A DNA stretch of 64,000 nucleotides from an uncultured Poribacteria bacterium (GTDB taxonomy: Bacteria > Poribacteria > WGA-4E > WGA-3G), in assembly GCA_951828515.1 (NCBI GenBank), contig OX639992.1, positions 1,826,008-1,890,007 of the forward strand, written 5' to 3'. Position 1 is the stretch's first letter. The number at the start of each line of letters is the position of its first letter. Positions 7,955 through 59,177 of the stretch are shown here, in pieces. Both the position numbers and the translations under genes were made by a program. A model generated the notes under the pieces. That model had not been told where the DNA came from. It searched no databases and was given only the letters and a program-made list of their open reading frames with translations.

Positions 7955-7980
7955 GGCGGGGTTGCAAACCCCGCCAGCAG
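7955..7980. repeat. REP-like hairpin variant GGCGGGGTTGCAAACCCCGCCAGCAG
   Basis: Same family; located ~45 nt downstream of the enolase-family gene stop. Confidence 0.55.
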
Positions 7981-8021
7981 AGAAAAAGAAAACCGTACTG
8001 ACCTTTTGAAAGGATAAAGAC

Positions 8022-9293
8022 TTACCACTGACCATGCACAGGGGTCTCACGTGCTTTCTCGAAAAGATCTGCCCATTCGTCAGTGCCATCGTCAAAGTTT
8101 AATTCGAGACGCGCGCCATCCACCTGTGCCTCACCACCGCCTGCATTGAAATAACTCAAACCATCACCGGACATGTGGATGCAACTGCCATCAGGATAAA
8201 CAGCGGTTTTGATGATACGCGGGACAGGATGAATCGTATAACCGTCAGCGTCTAACTTATCAGCAGGTACACGGAAGCGTTCAACTGCGTCTTCATCGAC
8301 TTCAACGCCTAACCCAGGCGCATCGGCAATCTTGTGGCATCCATCCGAGACTTGTATGGGGTGCGTGAGCAGATGGTCGCTGTAGAGATTAATACAGGTG
8401 ATTGCGGGCCATGTCGCATGTGTGAGTACACTCCCGAGATGTCCTGCCCAGGTTGTCGTCAAGCCGTTTCCAACGATCTGGAGCCAAAACGGCATATCTG
8501 CTGCTGCGCTGAGTTGCCCCTCACGCATCACCTGCGATTTGCCACCACCGATGACAAACCCTGTGCATACGTCCTCACGCACACAAGTGGTATAGGGAGG
8601 TGACCCGAAATGCATGGCGACCTGACACCCAACGGCTTGACGAATCTGCTTGTTTCCGTCAACATCGCTCTGCGGGATGGGAGTCTCAAACATCGCCACG
8701 TTTGGATGTGCAGCGAGTTTTTTCAGGATCGGGATAGCCGTTTCTGCGTCGCGCCACGAACTGTTCGGATCGAGGTCGAGTTTGAAGTCGGCTGGTACGT
8801 TTTCTGAGACTGCCTCTACCTGTGCGGTGATATCCCACCACGGACGCGGTTTATTTTTGAAACTGGTATAGCCGTTTTCCACGGCGTTAGCGGCTTCTGC
8901 TGCCCAGTTTTCAGGGGAGGAGTCGATACACCACCACGAAATTGGAACAGCTTCGCGACACTGCATGCCAAGAAGTTGGTAGATTGGAATCTCTAAAATT
9001 TTTCCGACGACATCAAAGAGTGCCATCTGTAAACCGGCACCAAGCGAATCGTCGTTCATAAGTTCGGCGGGACTTTGTCCAAGCACACGTTCAGCACTGG
9101 TATCACTGACCCGGGAATAGGTATAGTGGATGACGGTCTCGCCCCAACCGATATGTCCAGTATCGGTTGTAACCTTGCACAATTCAAGAAGCGACCAGTT
9201 GTAAACTGTTGATACGCTCTGGGTGGTAATTTGTTGTTGGCGCGGGGTGAAGGGGACATCTACAATCACACGTTCTACGTTCGTGACTTTCAT
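8022..9293 (-). CDS. enolase-superfamily enzyme (mandelate racemase/muconate lactonizing enzyme-like dehydratase)
   Basis: N-terminal KVTNVERVIVDVPF capping-domain start typical of MR/MLE/galactonate dehydratases, followed by a TIM-barrel region. The ATG at 9293 has a TAAGGAG RBS; the 27 codons further upstream overlap a REP hairpin. Confidence 0.6.
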   Translation of the reverse strand: MKVTNVERVIVDVPFTPRQQQITTQSVSTVYNWSLLELCKVTTDTGHIGWGETVIHYTYSRVSDTSAERVLGQSPAELMNDDSLGAGLQMALFDVVGKILEIPIYQLLGMQCREAVPISWWCIDSSPENWAAEAANAVENGYTSFKNKPRPWWDITAQVEAVSENVPADFKLDLDPNSSWRDAETAIPILKKLAAHPNVAMFETPIPQSDVDGNKQIRQAVGCQVAMHFGSPPYTTCVREDVCTGFVIGGGKSQVMREGQLSAAADMPFWLQIVGNGLTTTWAGHLGSVLTHATWPAITCINLYSDHLLTHPIQVSDGCHKIADAPGLGVEVDEDAVERFRVPADKLDADGYTIHPVPRIIKTAVYPDGSCIHMSGDGLSYFNAGGGEAQVDGARLELNFDDGTDEWADLFEKARETPVHGQW

Positions 9294-9309
9294 GGGTAGA
9301 CTCCTTATC

Positions 9310-9336
9310 GGCGAGGTCAGGAAACCTCGCCAGCGG
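9310..9336. repeat. REP-like hairpin GGCGAGGTCAGGAAACCTCGCCAGCGG
   Basis: Member of a family of at least 10 copies sharing GGCGAGGTT-loop-AACCTCGCC-AGCGG. Confidence 0.65.
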
Positions 9337-9479
9337 CGGTGGATAAGCATCGTGATCGGGAGATCGTTCCTACACAAACAAGGGTCGCGATTCGGAGATC
9401 GCTCCTACAGAAGAGAAAAATAAAAAGGGCGAGGGATTCATAAAACCTTCTCCCCCGCCCTATTGTATACCAATACATA

Positions 9480-10307
9480 CTAATACGCAACTTTAATTTC
9501 GCCCCAGAGGGTCGTGAGCTTGTCTTTGACATCGACATCAAAACCGTTTTTGTTTGTAACGAGAATGCTGTCGATCCGTCCCATTCCCCAACTTTCGTGC
9601 CAAACACCGACAGAACCGGCACCCTTGGTAGTGGCTTTGTCGGATTCAAGTATTGGGTCTCCGAGGTCATCGGAGGGTGCGAACAGGTCTTTGATTTCAT
9701 CAAGTTTCTTATACCAGACTTTAACGTTGTTGCCTTGGACCTCAACGCGTCCGAAATAAGCGACAGCATTGGTTTGATCGAGTCCAGCCCCTAAGCCGTG
9801 CGGTACACTGTCTATTTCCTTACCACCATTTTCACAACCGCACTGATCAAGGCATTGTCCGCTCGGACAACACCCGTCTTCCAGACTCATGAAAAGGACG
9901 GCCGCTGTCTCATTATAGCCAAAGACAACGAGATAGCCTTTATCGTCCCCTTTTCTACGGAATTGCAGACCGAAACTATCATCATCACCAAAGGAAAAGA
10001 CGGCTTGGACGATGCCGTCGGTAAAGTTTTTCACACCAGGCAGTTCTGTGTTACCAGAGATACCGCATCCCTCAGCGGTTTGCTTCATGGATCTTTTTCC
10101 ACCGATTTTGCCGCCTTCAAAATCATCCTCACCCCAGATGGTGCCCGCGTTTTCCGGTTTATAGTTTTTGACATTGTTCACATCAGCATTCGGTTTTGCG
10201 TCCTTGGAGCCGGGCTCAAAATCGGCGTAAAACACAACTTGACCGCTGGCGTGAAACGAAACAAGTAGACTCAAAACGAGGCTGAAAAGAAAAAAACGTG
10301 TCTTCAT
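9480..10307 (-). CDS. secreted hypothetical protein, paralog A (Cys-rich core DGCCPSGQCLDQCGCENGG)
   Basis: Signal peptide MKTRFFLFSLVLSLLVSFHASGQ. A GGAGGAG RBS precedes the ATG at 10307. It aligns over its full length with the adjacent paralog at 10564..11388. Confidence 0.55.
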   Translation of the reverse strand: MKTRFFLFSLVLSLLVSFHASGQVVFYADFEPGSKDAKPNADVNNVKNYKPENAGTIWGEDDFEGGKIGGKRSMKQTAEGCGISGNTELPGVKNFTDGIVQAVFSFGDDDSFGLQFRRKGDDKGYLVVFGYNETAAVLFMSLEDGCCPSGQCLDQCGCENGGKEIDSVPHGLGAGLDQTNAVAYFGRVEVQGNNVKVWYKKLDEIKDLFAPSDDLGDPILESDKATTKGAGSVGVWHESWGMGRIDSILVTNKNGFDVDVKDKLTTLWGEIKVAY

Positions 10308-10563
10308 GAATGTCTCCTCCGATTTCATAAAGAGTTGTGTTGCCGTTTATTCACAAGCAACAGCATGATGACAAGGCTATAGGCATCGCTTAGATACCCG
10401 TATCATCAAAGATGCCTTGTCTAAAACTAAAGTGGTGTTGGGTGAGGTACGGAGACCTCACCCGACAAAGATGAGTAGTGCAATGCAGAAAGACTGAGGT
10501 ATGGTAACCTCGCCCTGCAACGCCAGTTGATTCTATGCTATTTGTCTATATTAAGGCAGGAGA

Positions 10564-11388
10564 CTAATAGCTGCTTTTAACGTCGCCCCACGTCGTAGAG
10601 AGTTTGGCGTGCGGGTCGACATCAGTGGTGCCACCAGGACCGGTAACAAGGACGCTATCGACTCTTCCGTTGCCCCAACTTTCGTGCCAGATACCGACAG
10701 TACCGGGTCCCAAATCATCTGCGCCGTCATATTCAGCGACTGGATCGCCGAGTTCACTGGAGGCGGCGAAGAGATCGGACACATCGTCAAGTTCCATATA
10801 CCAGACCTGGATGAGACTTCCGATGACTTCAACGCGCGCAAAATAGGCGACGCTGTTGTCTTGTGAGAGATCTGCACCTAAGCCGTGGTCAACCCCGACG
10901 AGTTCATTCCCCCCATTTTCGCAGCTGCACTGGTCGAGACACTGCCCGGAAGGACAGCATCCATCTGCGAGGCTACCGATGATAATTTGGGGTGTTTCGT
11001 TATAGCCGAATCCGACGAGATAACCGCTGTCGTCTCCGACGCGCCGGAATTGGAAACCAACGCCATCATCGTCTTGCCATGAAAAAACGGCTTGGATGAT
11101 ACCGTCAGAGAAGCCATCGACACCGGGCAGCGGTGTATTACCGGAGATGCCACACCCTTCGGCAGATTGATGCAAGGCACCGCTGCCATCAGGAAATTCA
11201 TCTGACTCCACCCAAACGGTTCCAGCGTTTTCCGGCACCCAATTTGCTGGGTCGTTAACGCTGACATCCGGGATCGCTTTAGAGCCGCTTATTTCAAAAT
11301 CAGCATAGAAAATTACCTGTGCGCTGGCGTGGCCAATCAGTATAACTGAAAAAAGTGTGATGAGCACCATAAGGTGGGTTCTTGTCAT
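10564..11388 (-). CDS. secreted hypothetical protein, paralog B (Cys-rich core DGCCPSGQCLDQCSCENGG)
   Basis: Signal peptide plus full-length similarity to 9480..10307 (shared segments QVIFYADFE, AEGCGISGNT, GCCPSGQCLDQC, VAYF.RVEV, WHESWG). An AAGGAG RBS lies upstream of the ATG at 11388. Confidence 0.55.
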   Translation of the reverse strand: MTRTHLMVLITLFSVILIGHASAQVIFYADFEISGSKAIPDVSVNDPANWVPENAGTVWVESDEFPDGSGALHQSAEGCGISGNTPLPGVDGFSDGIIQAVFSWQDDDGVGFQFRRVGDDSGYLVGFGYNETPQIIIGSLADGCCPSGQCLDQCSCENGGNELVGVDHGLGADLSQDNSVAYFARVEVIGSLIQVWYMELDDVSDLFAASSELGDPVAEYDGADDLGPGTVGIWHESWGNGRVDSVLVTGPGGTTDVDPHAKLSTTWGDVKSSY

Positions 11389-11588
11389 TTTGTCACTCCT
11401 TTATTGGTTGAATTTCCACAAGTTAAGTAGTCTGCCTCAAAGTCAGTTTTGCCTGCTAAGGGCAGATTCTTATCAATAGGATGGTTTCTCGTGAAACCGA
11501 TACCTAAAATATAGCAAAAAAGCAAATTTCTGTCAAGAAAAGATAGAATTTTTATTTTTTGGGAGGCTTTGCCGTTGAAAGGGGAGGT

Positions 11589-11615
11589 GGCGAGGTTAGG
11601 GAATCTCGCCAGGGG
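11589..11615. repeat. REP-like hairpin GGCGAGGTTAGGGAATCTCGCCAGGGG
   Basis: Same family. Confidence 0.6.
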
Positions 11616-11741
11616 TGTGTTAATCAGCAAACAGTTTATAAATTTTAGACGTTCCGATAGTTTTCAGGTGGAAAGAGAAAGAGTAGACAGGCGATTGCTA
11701 TAAGTGGAGCGGAAGTGAAGGGTCTCTAACGCCACGAAAAA

Positions 11742-12650
11742 CTAAAGACTGCTTGATTGCTTATAGTCTTTCAACCTATTTTGCAACGTCCGGACGCTAA
11801 TCTCCAATACTTCCGCGGTTTTCGTTCGATTTTCGTTCTGCCACGCCAAAGTGTCGAGGATAAAGGTTTCTTCCATAGTCTTAAGGCTTGCTCCGAGAGG
11901 AACAGACACAGTTTGTTGGTTTTCAGGTGTGTAATTTTCTTTTGGTATGTTAACTCGCGGTTGCCCAAATGCCAAAATTTCTTCAGGCAGATGCCCAGGT
12001 AACACAGCCTCTCCATCTGACAAGATAACTGCGTGGATTAAAGCGTTTTCTAACTCTCGTATATTCCCGGGCCAAGGGTAGTTTTGGAGACGTGCGAGCG
12101 TCTCTGGTACTATTTTACGCACTGGCTGCGCGTAGGTATTACAATGTTTCTCCACAAAGTATTCTGTCAACATGCGAATATCCTCTCGCCGCTCGCGTAA
12201 GGATGGTAAAGAAAGAGAAACAGCATTCAATCGATAGTAAAGGTCTTTGCGGAAAGTGCCATTATCAACAGCCTCCGAGAGGTTACAGTGCGTAGCCGCA
12301 ACGATTCGGACATCCACTGGAATCGGCTTTGTTCCGCCTAAGCGTTCAATCTCACCCGTCTCAACCGCCCGTAACAACTTCGCTTGTAGGGAAAGTGGCA
12401 TATCTCCAATTTCATCAAGGAAGAGTGTCCCGTTGTGTGCGCTTTCAAATTTGCCGATGTGTTGCGTTTTCGCGTCCGTAAATGCACCTCTTTCATGTCC
12501 AAACAATTGGCTCTCAAGCAGCATATCCGGAATTGCGGCACAGTTGACAGAAACCATTTTGTTCCCCGACCGATCACTGTTTTGGTGTAAGGCACGTGCT
12601 ATCAACGCGTTAGGATATTTATAAAGAGGTCTATTTACTCGTTGGGAAAC
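11742..12650 (-). pseudogene. sigma-54-dependent transcriptional activator fragment (AAA+ sigma-54 interaction domain C-terminal part plus Fis-type HTH); N-terminus missing
   Basis: It encodes ...ALIARALH...VNCAAIP...[10 protein letters not shown]...LLRAVE (ESFGHE-like GHERGAFT loop) plus a C-terminal HTH. The Walker A GESGTGKE and the receiver/sensor domain are absent. The frame opens only at a stop near 12654, inside the 3' end of the upstream gene, and the track start is a TTG. Confidence 0.55.
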
Positions 12651-14635: not shown

Positions 14636-14776
14636 AACATTATTCTAAACTTTGGACAATTTTAAGCGATACGGCTGTCGTCCCTATGGGGCTGTCCATT
14701 TCGTTTTCATTTCTCTGATTCTTACAGAGGACGGGGTAGTTGCTCCGATGGTGAGCAACTACCGTGATAGGTTGAA

Positions 14777-15025
14777 TTAGTGGCAGGTATTTTCATATTC
14801 ACCACAAGCCTGCTCCGTGTTGTCTTTCGCACTTTCACACCGCTCTGCATTCCCACTGGCACACGCAATACTTTCATTCTCTTGTGCATCACTACACGCC
14901 TGTTGAAGGCTACTACAGTCACTAGCTTCTGCTTTCTGTAACATCCCGTGAAACGTCCCGAAACCAAATGTGAGTGCGAAGATGAGGACGAGGGCTGGAA
15001 TACTTGCAATCAATGTAGATTTCAT
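14777..15025 (-). CDS. small secreted Cys-rich protein
   Basis: 82 aa with a signal peptide (MKSTLIASIPALVLIFALTFG), 6 Cys in an acidic C-terminal half, and an AAGGAG RBS. Confidence 0.4.
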   Translation of the reverse strand: MKSTLIASIPALVLIFALTFGFGTFHGMLQKAEASDCSSLQQACSDAQENESIACASGNAERCESAKDNTEQACGEYENTCH

Positions 15026-15268: not shown

Positions 15269-15414
15269 GGAGTTACGCAAAGCGCAATAATGCACGTCGC
15301 ATGAATCAACGGTATTCAGGTTCTCCATATGGCATGAGTCGGGGTGAGTACACCGCAGAATTGCGCTACTACGAACCAAAGCCCGCACAAAAACAGGTAA
15401 ACTATGTAAGTCCT
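15269..15414. repeat. MITE-family member with degenerate left TIR (AGGAGTTACGCAA) and intact right half shared with 29660/53575 copies
   Basis: The right half GAATTGCGCTACTACGAACCAAAGCCCGCAC...TATGTAAGTCCT matches the 29660 element. Confidence 0.5.
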
Positions 15415-15857
15415 ACCTAAGTTGCTACTTAACGTGAGATTGACATAAGCGTATCGTTGGAGCCCTGCCTCATTCTCGCAGGCAGCGGTGGATTGTCGGG
15501 TTTCGCTGTGTTTATTTTTCTGAATGTGTCATGAAAAAGGAGACGTTTGTGGGTAATTTGAAGGATTCTGGGTGTGTCATCGCTCTACCCGACCTACGGG
15601 TCTCTTTCAATTTTTATTATTAAACTCACGTTACTTACAAGATTTTCGCCGTGAAGTCCGCGTTTTTGTATCGTCTCCTGTGAACTTTCGGACGCACAAG
15701 AAACACGGACTAACAGTCTATGCTACAAAGGGGCTACTTGCGCTATTTGGGAAAACTTAATAACACAAAGGGGTGATGAGGCAGGCTTTCAAGTGCGTTT
15801 GCCTACCGAAATTGAAGGATGGAGATTGGAAAGTATGGAATAGGAATGGGAAATTTA

Positions 15858-18731: not shown

Positions 18732-18906
18732 CTATATCTTCTCCAAAAAATGAGCGTAAGGGCTTTATTATATAGTAACGCGTATAGAGGATCGAAAGGT
18801 TGCATAAAATGCAAGTTTCACGATAAATATTTTCGCCTTTTATAGCCTAAGTTGCTACGTACAAGATTTTATGGTAGATTTTAGAATTACTTTGACACTC
18901 TAAAGA

Positions 18907-18945
18907 GGCGAGAGAAACACCCAAGCAAAAACACCTCGCCAGCGG
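18907..18945. repeat. REP-family variant with enlarged loop (GGCGAGagaaacacccaagcaaaaacaCCTCGCCAGCGG)
   Basis: Its loop module AAACACCCAAGCAAAAAC recurs at 2172..2199 and 33246..33280. Confidence 0.5.
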
Positions 18946-19240
18946 AGAAGGGTCGTTGTTTTTTAGGATGTCTATGTATTTTTAGGATTTACCATAGTTA
19001 TGAAGGAAGAAGAGGCACAGACTAACAGTCTATGCTACGAATATCAAAATTTCTACACAGATATCGCCCCGCTGAGGCTTTAGCGTATTAGCGTTTTCTC
19101 ATTCGTAATTTACCAGAGATGTTCATTTTTTGCAAGGAATTTGGCTAAGAGCGGGTGTGTAAAATTTTGCCAGAAGATTGGGTTGGAAGGGTGGAAACTT
19201 GGAAGCGGAAAGTGTTGGTTGTCAGCGTCAGGTCAATTGT

Positions 19241-19267
19241 GTAAGTCCTAAGATCTTCAGGACTTAC
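19241..19267. repeat. perfect hairpin GTAAGTCCT-aagatcttc-AGGACTTAC built from the MITE TIR sequence
   Basis: 9-bp stem with a 9-nt loop; the arms are the TIR motif in inverted order. Confidence 0.5.
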
Positions 19268-19313: not shown

Positions 19314-19358
19314 GTCTGAATCAGGATTTTCAGGATTCAAGGATTTTCAGGATTATAG
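19314..19358 (+). repeat. CAGGATT-array repeat copy 1 (TGTCTGAATCAGGATTTTCAGGATTCAAGGATTTTCAGGATTA)
   Basis: A ~44-bp element holding four CAGGATT half-sites; also present at 48515 and 49552. Confidence 0.6.
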
Positions 19359-20269: not shown

Positions 20270-20296
20270 GGCGAGGTTAGGAAACCTCGCCAGCGG
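20270..20296. repeat. REP-like hairpin GGCGAGGTTAGGAAACCTCGCCAGCGG
   Basis: Same family; sits between the cytochrome-fusion gene and the nucleotidyltransferase gene. Confidence 0.65.
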
Positions 20297-28926: not shown

Positions 28927-29273
28927 ATTTTTTGTCTCTATATACAACAAACTGAATCAACACATTATTTTATTTCAACTCGAAGAATGCCAATTCTTGA
29001 AATAATGCTCTGTTACAACGACAGATATCTCTAACGAATTTTTTACGTATCACTCAGCATTCTCTATGTTGCAATTCCCGTGCCAATTGGAAGAACCCAC
29101 GCCGTTCGTGAATTTTAGGAAAATGGGACTACGCAAATTTTTCGCAGTCGGCAAATTTTGCATACCGAATCTCTGCAGATATTGCAGAGTTCCAAAAGGC
29201 AGTGGCACCGGCGCGCGATATATCGGGGACGAACACTATGGTAAACTTTAGAATTAACTGTACACTCTGCACC

Positions 29274-29294
29274 GGCGAGGTTAGAAACCTCGCC
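29274..29294. repeat. REP-like hairpin GGCGAGGTTAGAAACCTCGCC
   Basis: Same family. Confidence 0.6.
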
Positions 29295-29360
29295 TACCCG
29301 GGGAGGGGAGAATGTCTGCTTATTTTTTTGGTTTACCATAATAGCGACAAACTCCTTAAC

Positions 29361-29645: not shown

Positions 29646-29659
29646 CTCTCTACCTCCTC

Positions 29660-29779
29660 AGGACTTACGCAAAATTGGCTTTCATGCCAAAATTGAAGGG
29701 ATATTCCCGAAGAAAGCGCAATGAATTGCGCTACTACGAACCAAAGACCGCATGAAAACGGGTCAACTGCGTAAGTCCT
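29660..29779. mobile_element. MITE-like element (~120 bp) with 12-bp terminal inverted repeats AGGACTTACGCA / TGCGTAAGTCCT
   Basis: It is bounded by perfect TIRs and is intergenic. A near-identical copy (~95% identity) lies at 53575..53694. Confidence 0.7.
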
Positions 29780-29947
29780 ACCTCCTTTTTGAAGGAGTAA
29801 CTTATAGGCGTATGTGGACGGAAACGGAATAGCCGCTATCCCTCACAAATTAGGGATTTATACTACAGTAACGCGGATAGGGTACAGGAAGGTTGCAGAA
29901 AGTGCAATTCTTTGGAAATGTTGTGTGGTTACAATAAATTTGTAATG

Positions 29948-29974
29948 TGGCGAGGTTAGGAAACCTCGCCAGCG
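29948..29974. repeat. REP-like hairpin GGCGAGGTTAGGAAACCTCGCCAGCGG
   Basis: Same family; identical to the 20270 copy. Confidence 0.65.
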
Positions 29975-30252
29975 GCGGTGGAGGTATCCGCTTCTCTTGA
30001 GATTGCCTCGCAGTAAGAGTTATTTGTAGGTTTTACCATAGATGAAGTCAACAATTTCTATTTTAGTGTTAGAGAAATTCGGTATACCGACGTGTGTAGA
30101 TTAAAATGTTTGTTCTATACGAAGCGGAGAATTTTTGAGGGAACTTAAGGAGCAGGAAGGTGGACGCGAAAGAAGGCGCGGTGTCGCGCCTTCCAACATA
30201 TCCATTTTTTTCGACTTGACAGAAGCGAGTAGAAATGCTACGTTACTGAATA

Positions 30253-33231: not shown

Positions 33232-33281
33232 GTGTCAGTAAGATCGCGAGCGGGGGAAACACCCAGCAAAAACACTCGCTT

Positions 33282-34028: not shown

Positions 34029-34202
34029 TTTTTAATTTTTCCTTGCGGTTAGATAACGTACGTTTCAAATTTGATGTCCGTTCCATAAATCCGCCTGCGC
34101 CGTTGTTGCAGGCTATAGGTTCCGTACAAATTCTGAGAATCATTATGGTCTTGGTCGGAACGTCGTGGAAAGCAGACAGAGGACATACATTTATAGTAAA
34201 GC

Positions 34203-34384
34203 CCATAATTACTTGGACATTACGGATAGGCGAGGATACAATCCTCGCCAGCGATGGTGTGGGCATAATTACTTGGACATTACGGATAGGCGAGGATACA
34301 ATCCTCGCCAGCGATGGTGTGGGCTTCCTTCACTGAACATAGGCGAGGATACAACCCTCGCCAGCGATGGTGTGGGCTTCTTTC
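34203..34384. repeat. tandem repeat, ~60 bp x3, each unit carrying a REP-like hairpin GGCGAGGATACAATCCTCGCCAGCGATGGTGTGGG
   Basis: The first two units are identical: CATAATTACTTGGACATTACGGATAGGCGAGGATACAATCCTCGCCAGCGATGGTGTGGG. The third has a different left half. Confidence 0.7.
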
Positions 34385-34434
34385 ACTGAACAACTGTCCA
34401 CATATTTTCTGACTTTACTATAAAATCCGCGATA

Positions 34435-37240: not shown

Positions 37241-37375
37241 AGGGCTTACGCATAAAGCAGATATTAGAGGATGCAAGAGTAAATATAGTGGATTCTGTAA
37301 TTAATTTTACACCAAACTCGGTGCGGTTAGAAACCGCACCTACCGGCGGTGTGCAGATATTAGAGGATGAAAGAA
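37241..37375. repeat. degenerate MITE-like copy (AGGGCTTACGCATAAAGCAG ... CGGTGCGGTTAGAAACCGCACCTACCGGCGG)
   Basis: It shares its internal module with 37515..37604. The TIRs are mutated. Confidence 0.4.
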
Positions 37376-48514: not shown

Positions 48515-48557
48515 GTCTGAATCAGGATTTTCAGGATTCAAGGATGTTCAGGATTAG
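48515..48557 (+). promoter_or_regulatory. CAGGATT-array repeat copy 2, intergenic upstream of sugar-phosphate isomerase gene
   Basis: Same 44-bp element, in the same orientation as the flanking genes. Confidence 0.4.
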
Positions 48558-49483: not shown

Positions 49484-49551
49484 GTGTTCTGTCTACCATA
49501 GGCGCGCTGCATGAAGATTCAGAATTTAATTCGATTATGTGGTGCGTCCAT

Positions 49552-49595
49552 TGTCTGAATCAGGATTTGCAGGATTCAAGGATTTACAGGATTAT
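49552..49595 (+). promoter_or_regulatory. CAGGATT-array repeat copy 3, intergenic upstream of RraA-like gene
   Basis: Same element, in the same orientation. Confidence 0.4.
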
Positions 49596-49674
49596 GGGTG
49601 CCTCTCATTTGAAAATCATCCTTCGATGGTTACCAATGGAGCAGATTTTACTAAGTACAGGAGTGTGACTTAAC

Positions 49675-50481: not shown

Positions 50482-50565
50482 AAGCTCCGCACGCCGCAAT
50501 TCAGATTGACGACAACGCAGACTCCTGCTAAAATTAAGAGAAACCCACAGACACGGAGGGGACGC

Positions 50566-51393
50566 ATGAAACCTCTTAACGACTTCGCTCTCAAACAACG
50601 AAAATATCTGCCGACCTTCACAAAAGCCACCGGAAAACCTACCGTTTACATACCAGGCTACCCGTATGAGGACGAGCACCCTATACCCGCAACCGGATTC
50701 CACGGAGAACAGATCAACATCTTGTATGAACAACTCTCCAGTTATTTCGCAACGCACACCCATATCTATATCGGCGTTGACAACTTCATCTATTACCGTG
50801 AAGGCGATACCACGAAGAGCGTCGCACCCGATATTTATGTCGTCTTAGGCGCAGCAAAATTTCCACTCCGCAGGAGTTTCTACACTTGGGCAGAAGGTGC
50901 GGTGCCAACGGTGCTTTTTGAGTTTTTGTCGGATTCGACAGCCGATGAGGATCGAGAAGAAAAGGTACAGATATATCTACGGGATATAGGGGCACAAGAG
51001 TATTTCATCCATCAACCCGAGATGGAGAAACCTGCAGAGTTTCGCGGGTGGCGGCGGGACCCCTCAGGCGCGATTGTTGAGATGCCCGCGGATGCACAGG
51101 GAGATTTATTTAGCGAGTCCTTAAATTTGTCGTTCCGGTGGACAGATCAACATCATAGCCATGTCCGGTTGTTACGTCCTTATCTGCCGGATGGCACTCC
51201 GATCACGACTGCTATAGAAGAGCGGAACCTTCGCGCAGCAGCGAAACTGCGTGCGGAAGAAGCAGAAGTCCGTGCGGAAGAAGCAGAAGTCCGTGCGGAA
51301 GAAGCAGAAGTCCGTGCGGCAGCAGAAGCGCGCCGACGGCAGGCATTAGAACTTGAGTTGGAACACCTTCGCCGCCGACTCACAGACCGATAA
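50566..51393 (+). CDS. Uma2 family endonuclease (DUF820) with C-terminal heptad tandem repeat (RAEEAEV x3)
   Basis: PDIYVVLG...PTVLFEFLSDST is the Uma2 core. A GGAGG RBS lies 7 nt upstream of the ATG at 50566. The C-terminus is coiled-coil-like and encoded by a 21-bp x3 tandem repeat. Confidence 0.7.
   Translation: MKPLNDFALKQRKYLPTFTKATGKPTVYIPGYPYEDEHPIPATGFHGEQINILYEQLSSYFATHTHIYIGVDNFIYYREGDTTKSVAPDIYVVLGAAKFPLRRSFYTWAEGAVPTVLFEFLSDSTADEDREEKVQIYLRDIGAQEYFIHQPEMEKPAEFRGWRRDPSGAIVEMPADAQGDLFSESLNLSFRWTDQHHSHVRLLRPYLPDGTPITTAIEERNLRAAAKLRAEEAEVRAEEAEVRAEEAEVRAAAEARRRQALELELEHLRRRLTDR
51250..51330 (+). repeat. in-frame 21-bp tandem repeat (CGTGCGGAAGAAGCAGAAGTC x3 + partial) inside Uma2 gene
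   Basis: Encodes RAEEAEV x3. Confidence 0.7.
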
Positions 51394-51711
51394 CAGAGAA
51401 AACACGTCACTGGCCAAGCGATCAACCTCGCCCACTGCTGCGCTTTGACCGATATTCTGTTTTATGCGTCCATCCTAACAAAAACTTTACAGACCCTTTG
51501 AAAATATTTGACATTTAAACGGAAAATGTAGTATGATTGGGCTTTGGTTCCTGTAAAAAGCATGTGCGATTGTTTTTAATGAAAGTAATGACCATGCGGG
51601 TTTTACTTTTTCATTAGCACTCAATTTTTACATGAGCTAATTCGGTATTTTGTTATTTTTGATTATAGATCGGCAAACTACACTATAGACTCAGAATCCA
51701 CAGGAAGCCCT

Positions 51712-52302
51712 ATGACACCTGAAGGGATAGTCGTTGCGGCGGTTGAGCAATATTTTTCGCAGCCCAAATTCCAAAAATTCTCTACAAAACAAGAATATCA
51801 AATTAAGATGGGCTCTGATAAACGCAGAGCAGACGTTGTGCTTATGAATAGCAAAGGCGATCTTGCGGCTATTGCAGAATGCAAGCGTCAGGGGGTAGAG
51901 GGAGATGGAATCGATCAATTGAAGTCTTATCTCAGTGCAACGGACACATCTTTAGGGATATTCGCGAATAGTACGGAACCCGATTCATGGAATTTCTACG
52001 AAAATCTAGGGAGAAACCGATTTAGAGAGATAACGACACATTCTGAGTTTGAAAAACAGGTTGTAAAAGGTGGAGATAACTTTGTAACTCGCGCATTAGA
52101 TTTTTTTAGACAGTTTCTGCGACCTAAACCTGGCAACATCAAGAGTGATGACAGGAAACCTACCGGCATAGAAATAGATGAAGAGTCCGCGGAACCAATT
52201 CCCCCGGTAATATCCCCAAAACGACACATTGACTCTATAATTCCCAAGGACAGACCTTTGCAAAAACGTGAGTTTGATAAAGGAGACGGATTTTATTATT
52301 AA
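51712..52302 (+). CDS. PD-(D/E)xK nuclease-fold protein (type I restriction enzyme R N-terminal domain-like)
   Basis: RADVVLMNSKGDLAAIAECK gives D...E.K spacing typical of HsdR_N/Mrr-like PD-(D/E)xK nucleases; 196 aa with an AGGAAG RBS. Confidence 0.5.
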   Translation: MTPEGIVVAAVEQYFSQPKFQKFSTKQEYQIKMGSDKRRADVVLMNSKGDLAAIAECKRQGVEGDGIDQLKSYLSATDTSLGIFANSTEPDSWNFYENLGRNRFREITTHSEFEKQVVKGGDNFVTRALDFFRQFLRPKPGNIKSDDRKPTGIEIDEESAEPIPPVISPKRHIDSIIPKDRPLQKREFDKGDGFYY

Positions 52303-52958
52303 ACTCACGTTGATTTAGGGATTTGTATATGTACCGCGATCCATCAGCGAAAGGCATGGATGAGGTAAATAATCGACTCAGTGAGGACATAATAACACTA
52401 CGCACAATGGACAGACAACGGAAACAGACAATCGCGTAGCAACAGCAAAACAGAGATGATGGTTGCCGCGATAAAATCATCGGGTACGCAATTATTGGTA
52501 TTATTGGTATTATTTTCGCACTGATAGGTGCCTTGTCGGAAGGGTGTTAAAAAAATAATCCCTGTCCTATCGTCGCAAAACTACAGCCTGCTATCCTGAT
52601 TCCAGCAACAAATGCTGACGAACAAAAAATCCGAGAAACCCGTGGCATCCGCGTCAATCCGCGATTCAGACGGATACCTCTCGCCGTAAAGCAAAATAAT
52701 TACACACCCAGAACTCCACAAACTAACACGTTTATGCTACAAAGAGGCCCTGTGAATTCTAACATTCACTAAAAAAATTGCCTCGTAGAGCAACAGGTCG
52801 GGAATCGGAGTTCCCTCCTACAGACGAACTAATCGCTCTGGGCATTTTCAACGGCTTGTGGAAGGATTATCAAGGGGTACCTGAAGGGTTGATTTAGAAA
52901 AGTATTTTGAAAATGTGATTCCAGTAGAAACGAGTAGCGGAAAAAGATGTTGCAACTT

Positions 52959-53366
52959 TTAGAAGAGTTTTGCTTTTTTATTTCCCCATTTTGGATCAAC
53001 TGAAGGTGCACAAAGACAGTCGCGATTGTGTTCCAAAGCCGCTGCCTCACGGTAATGACCACCATTTTCCAATTCGCGTATTTTCTGATTATAGTGCTCA
53101 AGCACGCGTTGGTATACTTCCTCTGCAGTCAAACCATCAGCAAACGCCCGATCTATTTCAGAATCGCAGTCAAAAAAAGCGTCGGAAATACGCATCAAAA
53201 CGATGAAGTCCTCATTGTATCCAAAGTAGGCAAGGCACCCATGGGTCCCAAAGTCAGGTCCGAGTTTAGCAGCAGTTTGACAAGCAAAAAAATGAACAAC
53301 CTTGCTATCTGATTCCTCAGATTGATAACTCCCTATATCAAAAATAGAGTTGCAATGTTCTCCCAT
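52959..53366 (-). CDS. hypothetical protein
   Basis: 135 aa ORF with no RBS and no recognisable motif. Coding status uncertain. Confidence 0.25.
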   Translation of the reverse strand: MGEHCNSIFDIGSYQSEESDSKVVHFFACQTAAKLGPDFGTHGCLAYFGYNEDFIVLMRISDAFFDCDSEIDRAFADGLTAEEVYQRVLEHYNQKIRELENGGHYREAAALEHNRDCLCAPSVDPKWGNKKAKLF

Positions 53367-53574
53367 ATAGAAGGGACAAGCAGTGAAATGGAACTTGTGT
53401 TGGTTCTCCTTCTACCACTTCTCGTAAAGAAATCCATTGACCATCGGAAGTTATAGCCACTGGACGACTCCAATGGTCTTCGTGAGGCATTGGTGCGTTA
53501 TTCGCCATGAGTGTCTCCTTAAGGAATCAGAACCCAAACTATTTTTTTTAAACTGGTTGATATTTCTAAGTATC

Positions 53575-53694
53575 AGGACTTACGCAAAATTGGCTTTCAT
53601 GCCAAAATTGAGGGGATATTCCCGAAGAGAGCGCAATGAATTGCGCTACTACGAACCAAAGACCGCACGAAAACGGGTCAACTGCGTAAGTCCT
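53575..53694. mobile_element. MITE-like element, second near-identical copy (TIR AGGACTTACGCA)
   Basis: It shares ~95% identity over 120 bp with 29660..29779 and has the same TIRs. Confidence 0.7.
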
Positions 53695-53867
53695 AAAGTA
53701 TTATACGATAAAACGAAATAAAAGTCGAAAATAGGACTGGGTGCCACTATGTGAAAAATTTGACTTTTCGTAGTGTATATGTTATACTTTAAAATGAAAT
53801 TTTTCAGGCAGCTACACTTAAGATAGGGTTGTAGAAGCGGTATTGTGCGTTGTTATCTGGATGAAAA

Positions 53868-54818: not shown

Positions 54819-54842
54819 AGTGTCCTGTATGGGAAACCAAGT

Positions 54843-55011
54843 GGAGTCTGCCTACTCTATGCTGTGGACGGCAGAGCGGAGTCTGCCTACTACTATGCTG
54901 TGGACGGAAACCGAACGGAGTCTGCCTACTACTATGCTGTGAACGGAAACCGAACGGAGTCTGCCTACTACTATGCTGTGAACGGCAGAACGGAGTCTGC
55001 CTACTACTATG
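54843..55011 (+). repeat. tandem repeat, 5 units of GGAGTCTGCCTACTACTATG(CTGTGGACGG + 6-9 nt); last unit provides the RBS and ATG of cysH
   Basis: Five copies of a ~28-bp core with 6-9-bp variable joints, read directly from the sequence. Confidence 0.7.
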
Positions 55012-55776
55012 AAGCCAATTGACGAAGAATTGACGTATTCAGTAGATCATGCTCTCTGTCAAGAAATTGTCTTGACGGAGGCTCCTCAAGAAATTCTTTT
55101 CTCTCTGTTTAAGCGGTTCAAAGCGCGCGCCGCAATTGTCACAAGCGGGCAACTATCGGGCATGGTACTGCTCCACCTGGCTGCCGAAAACCAATTGCCG
55201 TTTCGGGTCTGTACGCTTGATACACTTCGACTTTTTCCTGAGACCTATACCTTCCTTGAACAGGTGGAATCGCGCTACGGTATCCAGATCGAACAGATTC
55301 AGCCTGACCCACAAGAAGTACAGCAGATGGTGACAGAGCACGGCGAACACCTGTTTTTTGACAGCAAAGCGAAACAGGAATACTGTTGTAACATCCGAAA
55401 AGTTCGTCCGATGCAACGGCTCCTGGAAACGTTGGATGTTTGGATAACGGGTTTACGACACGACCAATCGGATGCGAGACAACAACTCCGAAAGGCAGAA
55501 ATCATATCTTCAACGACACATCCTGTGCTCAAGGTCAGTCCGCTTCTTCAGTGGACAACTGACGAGGTGTGGCAATTTGTTCGTGAAAACGAAATTCCTG
55601 TGAATCCGTTGCTTGAAGCAGATGACCGTGGTCATTATTATGAATCGCTTGGGTGCATCATCTGCACAACATCCATAAAACCCGGAGAACCGAAACGAGC
55701 AGGACGGTGGCGTTGGCAGAACGCCCCCTCTTCAGAAGAAAATACCAAAGAGTGTGGATTACACTACTCGATTTAA
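55009..55776 (+). CDS. cysH: phosphoadenosine/adenosine phosphosulfate reductase (CysH family)
   Basis: PAPS-reductase fold with C-terminal redox motif KECGLH (ECGLH signature). Its start codon lies inside the last unit of a 5x tandem repeat. Confidence 0.8.
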   Translation: MKPIDEELTYSVDHALCQEIVLTEAPQEILFSLFKRFKARAAIVTSGQLSGMVLLHLAAENQLPFRVCTLDTLRLFPETYTFLEQVESRYGIQIEQIQPDPQEVQQMVTEHGEHLFFDSKAKQEYCCNIRKVRPMQRLLETLDVWITGLRHDQSDARQQLRKAEIISSTTHPVLKVSPLLQWTTDEVWQFVRENEIPVNPLLEADDRGHYYESLGCIICTTSIKPGEPKRAGRWRWQNAPSSEENTKECGLHYSI

Positions 55777-55921
55777 TGGCTGTCAGCAAGATGGCTGTCG
55801 GCTGTCAGCCGTCGGAAACCTTTAGTAAAGAGGTTTCCTGATAAAGTAGAGTCTTCTTTCTGACTACTGACCGCTGATGACCGACTGCTAATGGCTAATA
55901 AAAAAGGAGAAAATCTATTTC

Positions 55922-56209
55922 ATGTCTGTAACAGTCCGTATCCCAACCCCGCTGAGACGTTTGACACAAAACTTGGCTGAGGTTGAAGCAGAAGGTGCCA
56001 ATATTGAAGGTATCATCGACAATCTTGAAGTAAACTATCCAGGGATGAAAGAACGTCTCTGTGATGACGGCGGAAATATCCGTCGGTTTGTAAATATCTA
56101 TCTCAACGACGAAGACATCCGCTTCCTCGATGGAAAAGCGACCGCTGTCGAAGATGACGCTGAAATCTCAATTATTCCCGCGATCGCTGGCGGATGCAGT
56201 CTATCTTAA
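55922..56209 (+). CDS. cysO: ThiS/MoaD/CysO-family sulfur carrier protein with C-terminal GG-CSLS extension
   Basis: 95 aa beta-grasp. It ends ...IIPAIAGG followed by 4 extra residues CSLS. AGGAGA RBS. Adjacent to a JAMM protease gene. Confidence 0.7.
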   Translation: MSVTVRIPTPLRRLTQNLAEVEAEGANIEGIIDNLEVNYPGMKERLCDDGGNIRRFVNIYLNDEDIRFLDGKATAVEDDAEISIIPAIAGGCSLS

Positions 56210-56315
56210 TGACTATTGCTTGCCAATGCCAGTAACGGTCAGAGACTCCGATGTATTGGCTGTCAGAGAGATTTTCAGCGTTTCTTTCTGACAGCTGACG
56301 GTTAATTGCTATTCG

Positions 56316-56780
56316 ATGACAACTTTGAAACCAGAAATCCTCAGCGAGATTTGTGACCACGCGAAATTGGAGTTTCCCAATGAATGTTGCGGTATCATTC
56401 TGGGGACTGAAACACAAGTATTTGTTCGGAAATGCCGGAACATACAGAATGAATTGCATCAGGAAGATCCAGACACATATCCGCGCGATGCCCGCACAGC
56501 GTACGTCATACACCCTGACGATTTAATCGCCATTCACAAAGAGTCTGACACACAGCAACGGCAGATTAAGGCGTTCTACCACTCACACCCAAACCACGAG
56601 GCGTACTTCTCCGAAAAAGACAAGGCAGATGCAACCGTATGGGGTGAACCTGCTTATCCGGATGCTACATATTTGGTTATCTCAATTTACGACACCGAAA
56701 TACGCGCGGTGAAGGCTTTCGCATGGGATGAAACAGGGAAAGATTTTATTGAGATCAAGGCACCGTTTGGAGAAACCTAA
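56316..56780 (+). CDS. mec: JAMM/MPN+ metalloprotease (Mec+/QbsD-like, sulfur-carrier C-terminal processing)
   Basis: EFPNECCGIILG (Glu) ... FYHSHPNHEAYFSEKD gives the HxHx7Sx2D JAMM zinc motif; 154 aa. Confidence 0.75.
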   Translation: MTTLKPEILSEICDHAKLEFPNECCGIILGTETQVFVRKCRNIQNELHQEDPDTYPRDARTAYVIHPDDLIAIHKESDTQQRQIKAFYHSHPNHEAYFSEKDKADATVWGEPAYPDATYLVISIYDTEIRAVKAFAWDETGKDFIEIKAPFGET

Positions 56781-56828
56781 TACAGTAGAAGCGATTTCCC
56801 GAACACGACCCTCATTGAGGCGAGAACC

Positions 56829-59177
56829 ATGCAACGCTTGCGAGTCCTTTTGGTGAAGCTTGCGAACCAAAACTTGCGCTACAAATGTCAGCAATTGATG
56901 TCGGACCTGCGCGTTGTCAAAACCTCTGGATTCAGGTCCTACGTTGGACTTCTCACCTTTTCCGCCGCTTCCCTCGCCATTGCCTTAGGAATCACCCTCC
57001 AAAAATACATTGTTTTTGAATACCACTCAAATTCGGGTATCGTCGGCTGGCTCAGTGTTCATGCGTATCCGAAACAGCAGGAATACTTCTTCTATCTGCT
57101 GGCACTGCTTGGTATCCCCACAACAATATATCTGTACTGGCTCGCGTGGTGTGTCTATTCGCGCTGGTGCGCCCAACGAACCGCCCAACCGATACAGCGT
57201 GTGCTGAAAGCAAACGCCTTGGCATCCATTCCGTTGTGGCTTTGCTGGCTACAGGTCTACTCTATCGGTCAGGGTATACTAACAGGCTTATTCGTACCGA
57301 TGAGTCTATCCATTTTGCTAAAATTGGTACTGTTGTATAAGCGGTACTTCCCTACACTGTGGACTCCAGATATTTCTGATGACAGAGACACCCACAACGC
57401 AGCCTGCAACAACGGCGCAGGCGGATTAATAGAAAAGCAGCCTAATCCTGAACCTCACTTTATAACTCCGCAAGGTACAATTAAAAAACGTGGTGGACTT
57501 GAATACCTTATCCTTCCCATTTTCATCTATCTCCTTATCTACTCTGGAAACATCCACGGCAAAATAGATTTATTTCATGAGGGTGAACGCCTCGCACCTC
57601 TCAATGAAATGCTGCACGGCGCGGTGCCGTTTCGGGACATCTATATCCAGCATGGACTCTTCCAAAACGCTTATCTGGCATGGTTGGGTAGCCAATTCTT
57701 TGAACCAACCCTATTCGGTATGCGTTCAATGGAGGACATATTGGACCCACTGGGTTATATCGCTCTCTACGTGCTCGGTTTGCAAGTATTCCGAGGTAGA
57801 TTTTTGACCGCTTTTATCTGTGTGATTATTGCCTCTGGGACAGAGTTTTGGGTAACTGCAAGACACAGCCTGGGCTTAATTAGTTTCGCCTTCGTAGCGA
57901 ATTCCCTTACGCACTTCCAAAAGACTCGCCCGAACCAGGTCCCTACATTTGTATGGAAATTGCTCCTCGCTGGGATCTCCACGAGTTTGGCGTTTTGGTA
58001 TAGCACTGAAATCGGGCTCTACACGCTGGGTGCCATCGGATTATTCCTGGTTATATATGTGTTCCAAGGCGGCTTTGGAACAGAGAATGGAAGAGGGCGA
58101 GGTTGGAAACCTCGCCAGCGGGAGGGAAGGGGAAGAGAATACCTGATCCCCTTAATCAGTTATGGCTGCGGGGTGCTGTTAGGTTTTCTCTCGGTAGGTA
58201 TCTATTTTTTATCGCACGGTGCCTTGGATGATGTAATCTGGAATTCCTATATCCAGTGTCGCTATCAACTCGCAACGTGGGGACTTGCTTTTCCATCTCT
58301 ATCGGAAACACTTGCCCTCTTGTCAACAGAGGGTTGGAACGCTTTCGTTTTCAGCGAAGGATTTCGATGGTACCTGCCCGTTTGCATCTTTTTGATCGTC
58401 GCGGCGTATCTGACATATCGGTGCTTATGTGGAACTGCATCAGAACCCAACGCGATGAAACTACTGCTGTTATTGCTCGGTGGCATTGCATTCTTCCGAA
58501 CTGCATTGGGACGTTCAGATGGTGGACATCTGATTTACGGCGCAACCTTTTTATGGCTGCTCTGTCTATTCCCATTAGAGAGAGGCATTTCCAAAATGTT
58601 CCGTGCGTGTCTATCGTTTTTAAGAGGGAACGGACGTTGGCAGTCCGCATTGAAGGCAGTGTGGGTGCTAATTCCGATGGCAATATTCTGTTGGTATGTA
58701 GGGCAAGCGCATCAGCCGTTGGCAGGTTTCCGAGAGAAATGGCAAAGATTGCGTCAGAACCCGTTCAAACAACGCGTTGTAACGCAGGAATTAGTGCGCG
58801 CAGGAAAGGTGGACATCCCAGACGATCAAGTTCAACAGGTTCAAAAGGTGGTCGCTTATATCCAAGAAAATACAGCACAGAACGAAAAGATTTTCGATTT
58901 TACGAGCCAGGGTGCCTACTACTTCTTCGCAGACCGACTGAGCGTTACCCGATTCCATCAAGTCTCGTACGCATCAACACCTGAGATGCAGCAAGAAGTT
59001 ATCTCAGCCCTTGAAAAGGACAAAACGCGTTTAGTGATCTTTAAAACCGGAGGTTGGTTCGATGCTGTTGACGATATTCCTGTCGAGGAGCGGCACCCCC
59101 TGATCGCGGAATACCTGCAGGCGAACTATGAACTCGCGGTGAACATTAACGAAACGGAGATTTTGCTTCGGAGATAA
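56829..59177 (+). CDS. large polytopic membrane protein, unknown function (contains an in-frame REP-element insertion)
   Basis: 782 aa with many TM helices and a GAGG RBS. Residues ENGRGRGWKPRQREGRGRE are encoded by a REP-like hairpin at 58096..58121. Confidence 0.5.
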   Translation: MQRLRVLLVKLANQNLRYKCQQLMSDLRVVKTSGFRSYVGLLTFSAASLAIALGITLQKYIVFEYHSNSGIVGWLSVHAYPKQQEYFFYLLALLGIPTTIYLYWLAWCVYSRWCAQRTAQPIQRVLKANALASIPLWLCWLQVYSIGQGILTGLFVPMSLSILLKLVLLYKRYFPTLWTPDISDDRDTHNAACNNGAGGLIEKQPNPEPHFITPQGTIKKRGGLEYLILPIFIYLLIYSGNIHGKIDLFHEGERLAPLNEMLHGAVPFRDIYIQHGLFQNAYLAWLGSQFFEPTLFGMRSMEDILDPLGYIALYVLGLQVFRGRFLTAFICVIIASGTEFWVTARHSLGLISFAFVANSLTHFQKTRPNQVPTFVWKLLLAGISTSLAFWYSTEIGLYTLGAIGLFLVIYVFQGGFGTENGRGRGWKPRQREGRGREYLIPLISYGCGVLLGFLSVGIYFLSHGALDDVIWNSYIQCRYQLATWGLAFPSLSETLALLSTEGWNAFVFSEGFRWYLPVCIFLIVAAYLTYRCLCGTASEPNAMKLLLLLLGGIAFFRTALGRSDGGHLIYGATFLWLLCLFPLERGISKMFRACLSFLRGNGRWQSALKAVWVLIPMAIFCWYVGQAHQPLAGFREKWQRLRQNPFKQRVVTQELVRAGKVDIPDDQVQQVQKVVAYIQENTAQNEKIFDFTSQGAYYFFADRLSVTRFHQVSYASTPEMQQEVISALEKDKTRLVIFKTGGWFDAVDDIPVEERHPLIAEYLQANYELAVNINETEILLRR
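58096..58121. repeat. REP-like hairpin GGCGAGGTTGGAAACCTCGCCAGCGG located inside a CDS
   Basis: Same family; inserted in-frame within the 56829..59177 membrane protein gene. Confidence 0.6.

Follow-up and report, generated by a model that had tools for sequence, protein, structure and literature searches.

A family of repetitive extragenic palindromes in Poribacteria and its link to genes for REP-associated tyrosine transposases

A stretch of 64,000 nucleotides of an uncultured Poribacteria bacterium (contig OX639992.1; the whole stretch is called the window here) carries a family of short hairpins, designated REP-A. The hairpin is a genuine repetitive extragenic palindrome (REP) family of Poribacteria. 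The + strand consensus is GGCGAGGTT, a loop of 3–4 nt, AACCTCGCC and the unpaired 3' tail AGCGG, with a stem of 9 bp. By REP convention the element is read on the − strand of the window: unpaired tag (CC)GCT/G, stem GGCGAGGTT, free loop of 3–4 nt, AACCTCGCC. A subfamily of REP-associated tyrosine transposases (RAYTs) is linked with REP-A through RAYT genes bracketed by inverted REP-A copies. Copies of REP-A come and go between close relatives, in some cases in frame within genes. Assignment of the hairpins to a REP/RAYT system is held with high confidence.

REP-A hairpins of the window

Thirteen REP-A copies at ten sites were found in the window by pattern searches, with 0.00 expected by chance (dinucleotide-preserving shuffles). 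Twelve of the copies are intergenic. At eight sites the flanking genes run in the same direction; 37320 is in a divergent spacer, and 58096 falls in frame within an open reading frame (ORF). Folded as single-stranded DNA, the copies reach −8.6 to −13.9 kcal/mol with z-scores of −5 to −7, or a weaker −3.5 for the copy at 37320; at 18907, where the loop is long, the outer stem and tail are retained but the fold is weak (z −1.9). Rfam and tRNA scans of the window gave no matches. The gene content of the window is bacterial and chromosomal, as judged from domain scans of the ORFs.

The first-pass annotation of this DNA had reported a REP-like hairpin family of at least 10 copies. The family is real: every position listed there holds a hairpin, the copy at 37320 is additional, and 29948 has to be moved to 29949. 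Its tandem array of three 60-bp units does contain three copies (period 60, 3.0 copies in Tandem Repeats Finder), at actual spacings of 60 and 53 bp. The hairpins at 2172 and 33246, taken there as loop-expanded variants, do not belong to REP-A. Their stems differ, their folds match those of shuffled sequences (z −1.3 and −1.4), and only a 19-nt loop module is common to them. What had been described as a subfamily with an 18-nt loop insert is this separate module, present in the loops of several hairpin families. A location mostly at gene ends was correct insofar as most copies are intergenic; besides the divergent and the intra-ORF sites, the copies at 9310 and 20270 sit directly 5' of a ribosome-binding site, not 3' of a gene.

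Two copies accompany one MR_MLE gene. On the − strand the copy at 7955 reads as tag CTGCT followed by the hairpin, 42 nt 3' of the stop codon. The copy at 9310 is placed immediately 5' of the Shine-Dalgarno sequence and the ATG (~9293), and two copies of a second family, REP-B, follow it at 9348-9414.

Distribution and conservation of pairing

The pattern GGCGAGGTTN{3,4}AACCTCGCCAGCGG was scanned in one genome per species (185,579 species). The exact motif matches at least 114 stretches, of which 108 are titled Poribacteria; the remaining six are contigs of one metagenome-assembled genome titled 'uncultured bacterium'. The motif is thus very abundant in Poribacteria. Named homologs of one protein encoded in the window are likewise from Poribacteria. 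The anatomy of the element was described from 172 oriented copies in the window and the 114 loci, together ~1 Mb from Poribacteria. Conservation of the tail AGCGG is 80–100%, with no overall conservation in more distant flanks. The loop varies freely (AGGA, ACA, AGA, TGA, TCA, CGGA and others), and the spacer between the stem arms varies from 3 to 30 nt.

For the covariation test, only the right arm and tail were used to find copies, and the left arm was then scored. The left arm is perfectly complementary in 167 of 180 copies with the TCG stem, in 33 of 38 with GCA, in 13 of 18 with GAA and in 11 of 13 with GTG. Since complementarity holds in all four stem variants, it is the pairing that is kept, not the sequence. 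The same is true of the TCG stem with a TACC tail (9 of 9). Two main tails are present. AGCG occurs nearly always with the GGCGAGG stem; TACC occurs with other stems and with nine GGCGAGG copies. Read on the opposite strand, these tails are the 5' tags GCT/G (AGCG) and GTA/G (TACC).

Among 123 intergenic copies, orientation relative to neighbouring genes, which the first-pass annotation had suggested comparing with transcription, comes close to random (49 −E−, 34 +E+, 21 convergent, 19 divergent). The compensatory stem changes bear out the conservation of structure. The copies are mostly singlets, direct head-to-tail tandem arrays or cores of ~116-nt mosaic elements. Two inverted REPs joined by a short conserved linker, the arrangement of bacterial interspersed mosaic elements (BIMEs) and of REP doublets forming hairpins (REPINs), are not how the copies are organised, and a BIME-like role is not supported by copies that do not alternate as inverted pairs. 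Transposases are not enriched among the genes adjoining copies; the neighbours belong to ordinary expanded Poribacteria families, namely GFO_IDH_MocA, WD40, ECF sigma, PhyH and ABC.

RAYT genes

The E. coli RayT sequence from the MG1655 record, searched against the fetched loci, identified one ORF (L111:4260-4733; Pfam Y1_Tnp, 3e-17). Hairpins GGTTCGGTT-AGGA-AACCGAACC-TACCGGG lie on its flanks in both orientations. The family of this protein has 190 members in the protein database (52–87% identity), with several paralogs per genome. Members with a source name, and all contigs fetched for the family, are from Poribacteria. Four representatives score 114–129 bits with NF047646 'REP-associated tyrosine transposase' (cut-off 80) and 36–52 bits with NF033573 IS200, below the cut-off of 55. 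The HUH motif and the catalytic tyrosine align with those of E. coli RayT.

DNA around ten RAYT genes was fetched and compared. The RAYT bracketed by REP-A is a 154-aa Y1 transposase. At P0205 (locus L116), CGCT-GGCGAGGTTTCCTAACCTCGCC lies 140 nt upstream of the gene and GGCGAGGTTAGGAAACCTCGCC-AGCG lies 5 nt past the stop codon, forming an inverted REP-A bracket. P0204 (L121/L122) and P0196 (L129) are likewise enclosed in inverted REP-A copies. P0197 (L123) lies within a cluster of hairpins of the same family, the nearest upstream and downstream copies pointing the same way. P0173, P0123 and P0149 have GTAG-tagged stem variants on their flanks, and P0191 has GCAG-tagged hairpins. Together with the compensatory stem changes and the abundance of the hairpin in Poribacteria, these brackets uphold the REP-like reading of the first-pass annotation.

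P0234, a paralog from the same genome as P0205, is bracketed in L118 by inverted copies of REP-B (GTAGGAGGGAACTCCGATTCCCGAC). REP-B occurs in the window as well; on the − strand it reads GTAGGAG[GC]GA[AT]CTCCGA[AT]TC[GC]CGAC, and its tag is the canonical GTAG.

Among solved structures, those closest to P0205 are 2fyx and 2xm3 (E 4e-8 to 4e-7); E. coli TnpA-REP, 4er8, scores 2e-4. Entry 2fyx is deposited only as 'transposase, putative'; both 2fyx and 2xm3 are placed with the IS200/IS605 Y1 transposases by Pfam/NCBIfam context.

In L119 (711-2465) a TnpB (OrfB_IS605) gene is directly followed, on its downstream side, by a further RAYT, P0146. AACCTCGCCAGTGG immediately precedes the start of P0146 and GGCGAGGTT immediately follows its stop, an arrangement resembling a hairpin split by the gene. 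Beyond P0146 come long tandem arrays of the mosaic units described below.

Tags and enzyme residues

Known REP tags are an unpaired 5' GT[AG]G (GTAG super-family) or CGTC (PMC3733652, PMC6006769), and in E. coli TnpA-REP residues around W94-R104 contact GTAG (PMC6006769, PMC3479197). Among the Poribacteria loci, the RAYT motif xGY[T/S]DW is found with the REP tag GTAG (five loci), xEYRDW with GCTG (four loci) and SQYRDW with GCAG (one locus). Despite 80% identity to P0205, P0173 carries the GTAG-type motif and is flanked by GTAG-type REPs. The correspondence of tag and residues is a lead, not a result, because the sample is small and the sequences are related.

Turnover of copies

Loci L116 and L117 are near identical. 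The AhpC/Redoxin gene of L116 carries a 48-nt in-frame insertion with CGAGGTTGGAAACCTCGCCAGCG (hairpin and tail); the gene product has 624+ residues in L116 versus 608 in L117.

The element at 58096 of the window (GRGWKPRQ) is present in 6 of 26 aligned orthologs, its loop variants giving W or Y. Closer orthologs of the protein have a shorter, unrelated loop, and distant ones are 17 residues short. L128 has the insertion at an identical site, and P0002/L127 (90% identical) lacks it. Between the window and L128 the 21-nt hairpins are identical and the flanking codons differ. The ThiS-JAB spacer was compared between the window and both L127 and L128, but divergence there is too great for insertion boundaries to be placed.

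Two blocks of the window are absent from the otherwise syntenic L127 and L128: 43521-45422, with a GmrSD restriction gene (GC 0.40), and 50506-53721, with a Uma2-family gene. Both have the look of strain-specific insertions, the second with its end near a REP-B copy and a 123-nt repeat.

Strand bias

All copies of both families in the window (13 of 13 REP-A, 6 of 6 REP-B) are on one strand, despite a switch in gene direction at 37 kb. In other loci, non-tandem neighbours within 60 kb are concordant in orientation by 28:14, and 30 of 38 REP-B copies are oriented as the nearest REP-A. The tag-first strand tends to be the gene-rich strand (p = 0.017), and AT skew differs (p = 0.014).

Single-strand chemistry at the replication fork has been described for IS608/ISDra2 (PMC6006769). 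A one-strand bias is as expected from single-strand, replication-coupled chemistry, and the fit is suggestive. A broader proposal is that the RAYTs of Poribacteria have radiated, with tag specificity rewired stepwise together with the REP, and that the 19 of 19 copies on one strand (~50 kb) are the footprint of replication-coupled insertion. This is tentative, and judged somewhat improbable as a whole. If true, it would provide a natural series of variants from which the recognition code of a domesticated HUH enzyme could be read, and the 19 one-strand copies of two REP families would record replication-coupled single-strand insertion in an uncultured phylum.

Mosaic elements

A conserved left arm, TATRGTRRA..AATTA..GACA, precedes the hairpin in 76 of 195 oriented hairpins. 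On the right side the tail is followed by ~30 variable bases and a matching right arm ending in TYYACYATA. A strict search recovered 31 complete mosaic elements, typically 116–119 nt in length. The outer arms pair over 13 bp, with changes on both sides at seven positions. The TA at both ends is a conserved terminus and is not separable from a target-site duplication. Other recurrent contexts of the hairpin are an AT-rich arm pair around two hairpins and a symmetric form (CCGCT-hairpin-AGCGG) adjoining AGGACTTACGCA, which in other genomes lies ~12 nt from the symmetric REP. In the window the left mosaic arm TATAGTGGATTC... precedes the hairpin at 37320.

A sigma-70-like promoter sequence, TGGACA-17-TACAAT, is formed at 34214-34242 and again at 34274-34302 by the mosaic left arm (TTGGACA) and the loop of the GGCGAGGATACAATCCTCGCC variant. 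The left arm supplies TGGACA and the loop supplies TACAAT, which places the −10 box within the hairpin loop.

Table 1. REP hairpins, mosaic elements and related features in the window
Feature	Position	Strand	Description
Hairpin, not REP-A	2172..2199		weak hairpin GGAGG/CCTCC, z −1.25; loop contains the 19-nt module with 2 mismatches
REP-B, exact copies	4905-4929, 9384-9408, 52797-52821	same strand as canonical REP-A	
REP-B, diverged copies	4968-4999, 5003-5034, 9348-9379	same strand as canonical REP-A	
REP-A	7955..7980	−	GGCGGGGTT-GCA-AACCCCGCC-AGCAG; one compensated pair, A-T to G-C
MR_MLE gene	ORF 8022-9377	−	likely start ATG ~9293
REP-A	9310..9336	−	GGCGAGGTC-AGGA-AACCTCGCC-AGCGG; one stem mismatch
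REP-A, degenerate	11589..11615	−	one mismatch in stem; tail AGGGG
Mosaic element, 127 nt	18870..18996		left arm TATGGTAGATTTTAGAATTACTTTGACA, REP core, right arm TGTCTATGTATTTTTAGGATTTACCATA
REP-A	18907..18945	−	short stem GGCGAG/CTCGCC; 22-nt loop with module GAAACACCCAAGCAAAAAC; tail AGCGG; core of mosaic 18870-18996
REP-A, consensus copy	20270..20296	−	19 nt 5' of NTP_transferase ATG (20251)
Mosaic element, 104 nt	29237..29340		inverted ends TATGGTAAAC.../...GGTTTACCATA around the REP at 29274
REP-A stem, GTAG-type tag	29274..29301	−	tail TACCCGG; − strand GGTA/G...; core of mosaic 29237-29340
REP-A, consensus copy	29949..29975	−	followed by right half of a mosaic element ending ..TTTTACCATA
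Hairpin, not REP-A	33246..33279		hairpin GCGAG/CTCGC; loop module with 1-nt deletion; then TTCTACAAC, REP-B-like tail
Mosaic element, 231 nt	34192..34422		ends TATAGTAAAGCC.../...GACTTTACTATA; internal left-arm and REP segment triplicated, giving the 60-bp x3 array
REP-A, three tandem copies	34229-34254, 34289-34314, 34342-34367	−	GGCGAGGAT-ACA-ATCCTCGCC-AGCGA; T-A to A-T compensated pair
REP copy, GTAG-type tag	37320..37346	−	GGTGCGGTT-AGA-AACCGCACC-TACCGG; two compensated pairs
REP-A, consensus copy	58096..58121	−	loop GGA; in frame within 782-aa membrane-protein ORF 56829-59177; encodes ..GRGWKPRQR...

Origin of the copies

Under the REP/RAYT assignment, the hairpins would be short non-autonomous DNA elements, and a dedicated RAYT, an HUH/Y1 enzyme encoded elsewhere in the genome, would recognise them in single-stranded hairpin form. 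By analogy with E. coli TnpA-REP and the TnpA of IS608/ISDra2, the RAYT would bind the folded hairpin on single-stranded DNA, most likely on the lagging-strand template. It would read the tag beside the stem, then cleave and rejoin the strand, dispersing and homogenising the copies; insertion polymorphism between relatives lends this indirect support. Any use by the host, as stem-loops at the 5' or 3' end of mRNA, would be secondary.

Several points weigh against this assignment. The main family lacks the canonical GT[AG]G tag: GCTG is neither GT[AG]G nor CGTC, and GTAG was found only in the copies at 29274 and 37320 and in sister families. Inverted doublets (REPINs/BIMEs) are held by some authors to be the mobile unit, and the copies are mostly singlets or direct tandems. 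No RAYT gene is present in the window (tblastn with 120 Poribacteria RAYTs); the search for such a gene, proposed in the first-pass annotation, succeeded outside it, where four independent Poribacteria RAYT loci carry REP-A hairpins at their flanks. Support from strand bias is limited in that GC skew against the canonical strand is not significant (p = 0.11, 8-kb loci), and the statistics outside the window are modest and inflated by tandem copies. Finally, ~40% of copies belong to mosaic elements bounded by terminal inverted repeats, a hallmark of miniature inverted-repeat transposable elements (MITEs) moved by DDE transposases, and part of the copy number may therefore stem from another mechanism.

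This last point leads to the strongest rival, in which the mobile unit is the ~116-nt MITE (TATRGTRRA.../...TYYACYATA), moved in trans by a DDE transposase, possibly an IS630-like enzyme targeting TA, and the hairpin is a passenger or was captured. The frequency of the left arm, the 31 complete elements of near-constant length, the paired outer arms with their TA ends and the tandem duplication of whole mosaic units all speak for it. Terminal inverted repeats are confined to the mosaic subset, however. Most copies consist of hairpin and tail alone in unrelated flanks, and at least two other conserved contexts exist. RAYT genes are bracketed by the bare hairpin, not by mosaic arms, and the 48-nt insertion of L116 looks like hairpin and tail without arms. 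DDE transposases are not enriched beside copies. No full-length insertion sequence (IS) with mosaic ends was seen, although no genome-wide search for such an IS was made. The MITE explanation is considered unlikely for the family; it is compatible with the REP/RAYT assignment and would explain the mosaic subset only.

It is improbable that the hairpins are primarily RNA signals maintained site by site by selection, as terminators, attenuators or mRNA-stabilising stem-loops. E. coli REPs do stabilise upstream mRNA. The stems of REP-A are stable and GC-rich, 8 of the 10 window sites lie between co-directional genes, and two copies abut a ribosome-binding site. A terminator role, raised in the first-pass annotation, is contradicted by the lack of a T/U tract after the stem on either strand: none of the copies has one, and none was called terminator-like. 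Orientation to genes is near random, and some copies are found in divergent promoter regions or within ORFs. Conservation is higher in the unpaired tag than in the loop, and the same sequence brackets a transposase gene.

A palindrome serving as a double-stranded operator for a dimeric protein, or a CRISPR-like (clustered regularly interspaced short palindromic repeats) tandem array, could be suggested by the perfect inverted repeat with 9-bp half sites, the −10-like boxes adjoining some copies and the one regularly spaced region, but this is effectively refuted and carries almost no probability: the half sites change compensatorily across a spacer of 3 to 30 nt, which keeps pairing and not a protein-readable sequence, and the tandem 'spacers' in 34204-34392 are identical to each other, with no cas domains in the ORFs scanned.

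Other candidates were rejected. Phage-type hairpin promoters and RNase III sites were ruled out by the chromosomal gene content. A sigma-54 promoter (TGGCAC-N5-TTGC) was judged by eye to misfit in spacing and in the −12 box. For an intrinsic terminator, the T tract is missing; terminator-like sites in the window occur at the shuffle background, with no REP-A among them. A 5' untranslated region element is at odds with the near-random orientation across genomes and with the number of copies that adjoin a start codon, just 2 of 13. A CRISPR array was rejected on the identical 'spacers' and the lack of cas domains in the ORFs scanned.

Other repeats of the window

The 19-nt module GAAACACCCAAGCAAAAAC is located at 2176-2194, 18914-18932 and 33254-33272, and at ~40 sites in Poribacteria loci. 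It is found in the loops of hairpins from different families with differing stems and, reversed, just 3' of the REP in some mosaic elements. It may be a loop-targeting insert or a conserved large loop. The hairpin at 33246 is comparable to one in L092, CGCGAGC..CTCGCTCCTACAAG.

A 39-bp unit is repeated in 4.8 tandem copies at 54832-55011; it contains a small hairpin, GGCAGA..TCTGCC, followed by TACTAC, and is possibly another family of tagged palindromes. The motif CAGGACTTACGCAAAAT is present in intergenic DNA at 19246, 29647, 33112, 37228, 37502 and 53562. The 123-nt intergenic repeat occurs at 29658-29780 and 53573-53695 (98% identical), with a partial third copy at 15358-15418. The leader motif TTTTAATTTTCCTTGCGGT is found at 21, 2108, 2274 and 34030, by start codons of − strand genes: it adjoins the ATGs at 2107 and 34028, lies ~170 nt from the nearest start at 2274 and has no identified start at 21. 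Short tandem runs of TCAGGATTT occur at 19321-19354, 48522-48555 and 49561-49593. A similar run, CAGGATTTACAGGATT, lies upstream of the L116 RAYT.

Comparison with known systems

Descriptions of REPs, RAYTs and REPtrons in Proteobacteria are ample, and reports of tagged REPs cover eight phyla; REPs inside genes and multiple families, each served by its own RAYT, are on record too (PMC2817692, PMC3733652, PMC3333891), the intragenic ones in several species (PMC3733652). A full-text literature search found no paper describing REPs or RAYTs in Poribacteria. Among the matches read, those to 'palindromic' concern CRISPR or other symbionts, and one to 'RAYT' is the author name Raytselis.

Finding such a system here extends REP/RAYT systems to Poribacteria and reveals no new kind of system. 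REPs account for a large share of the repetitive intergenic DNA in this uncultured phylum of sponge symbionts. Such repeats can fragment metagenome assemblies and confuse gene callers; one copy of the window is translated within a membrane protein. The GTAG, GCTG and GCAG tags, paired with RAYT variants, are a usable set for asking how domesticated transposases read DNA.

The elements share with the REPtrons of Proteobacteria (E. coli rayT/yafM, Pseudomonas, Stenotrophomonas; PMC2817692, PMC3333891, PMC3479197, PMC3733652) a GC-rich hairpin of 21–22 nt with an unpaired conserved tag at one foot, high abundance in the sampled sequence with mostly extragenic location, and the coexistence in a genome of several REP families that each have a RAYT paralog of their own. 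Also shared are the placement of the RAYT between inverted REPs, the HUH motif with catalytic tyrosine and a score above the cut-off of the NCBIfam RAYT model. They differ from them in the main tag, which is GCTG (GCAG in one relative) and not GT[AG]G, while sister copies in the same genomes have GTAG, and in the arrangement of copies as singlets or head-to-tail arrays, not inverted doublets. As in BIMEs and REPINs, REPs are found within larger conserved mosaic units in which long-hairpin folding is possible and tandem repetition occurs. BIMEs and REPINs consist of two opposed REPs, whereas the Poribacteria mosaic contains one REP (rarely two, in the same orientation); its arms are AT-rich, 13–28 nt, inverted, and are not REPs.

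Rickettsia palindromic elements resemble REP-A in being inserted in frame within genes with the frame kept open (the membrane-protein loop at 58096; AhpC/Redoxin of L116). Those elements are 100–150 nt in length and have no dedicated transposase known, whereas the Poribacteria insert is the REP itself, 26–48 nt. MITEs of the Correia/NEMIS type of Neisseria resemble the mosaic element: ~100–130 nt, terminal inverted repeats starting with TATAG, TA ends and promoter-like boxes in the arms. Unlike these, the Poribacteria element has a RAYT-type REP at its core. With the subterminal hairpins of IS200/IS605 elements (IS608, ISDra2), REP-A shares the enzyme superfamily and, by analogy, probably the recognition of DNA as a hairpin; its chromosomal orientation bias is as expected for the lagging-strand chemistry of IS608/ISDra2. 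The Poribacteria hairpins differ in being dispersed with no transposase between them, and the proteins fall below the IS200 and above the RAYT cut-off. The Poribacteria system has the defining features of REP/RAYT systems except the literal GT[AG]G tag and the inverted-doublet organisation.

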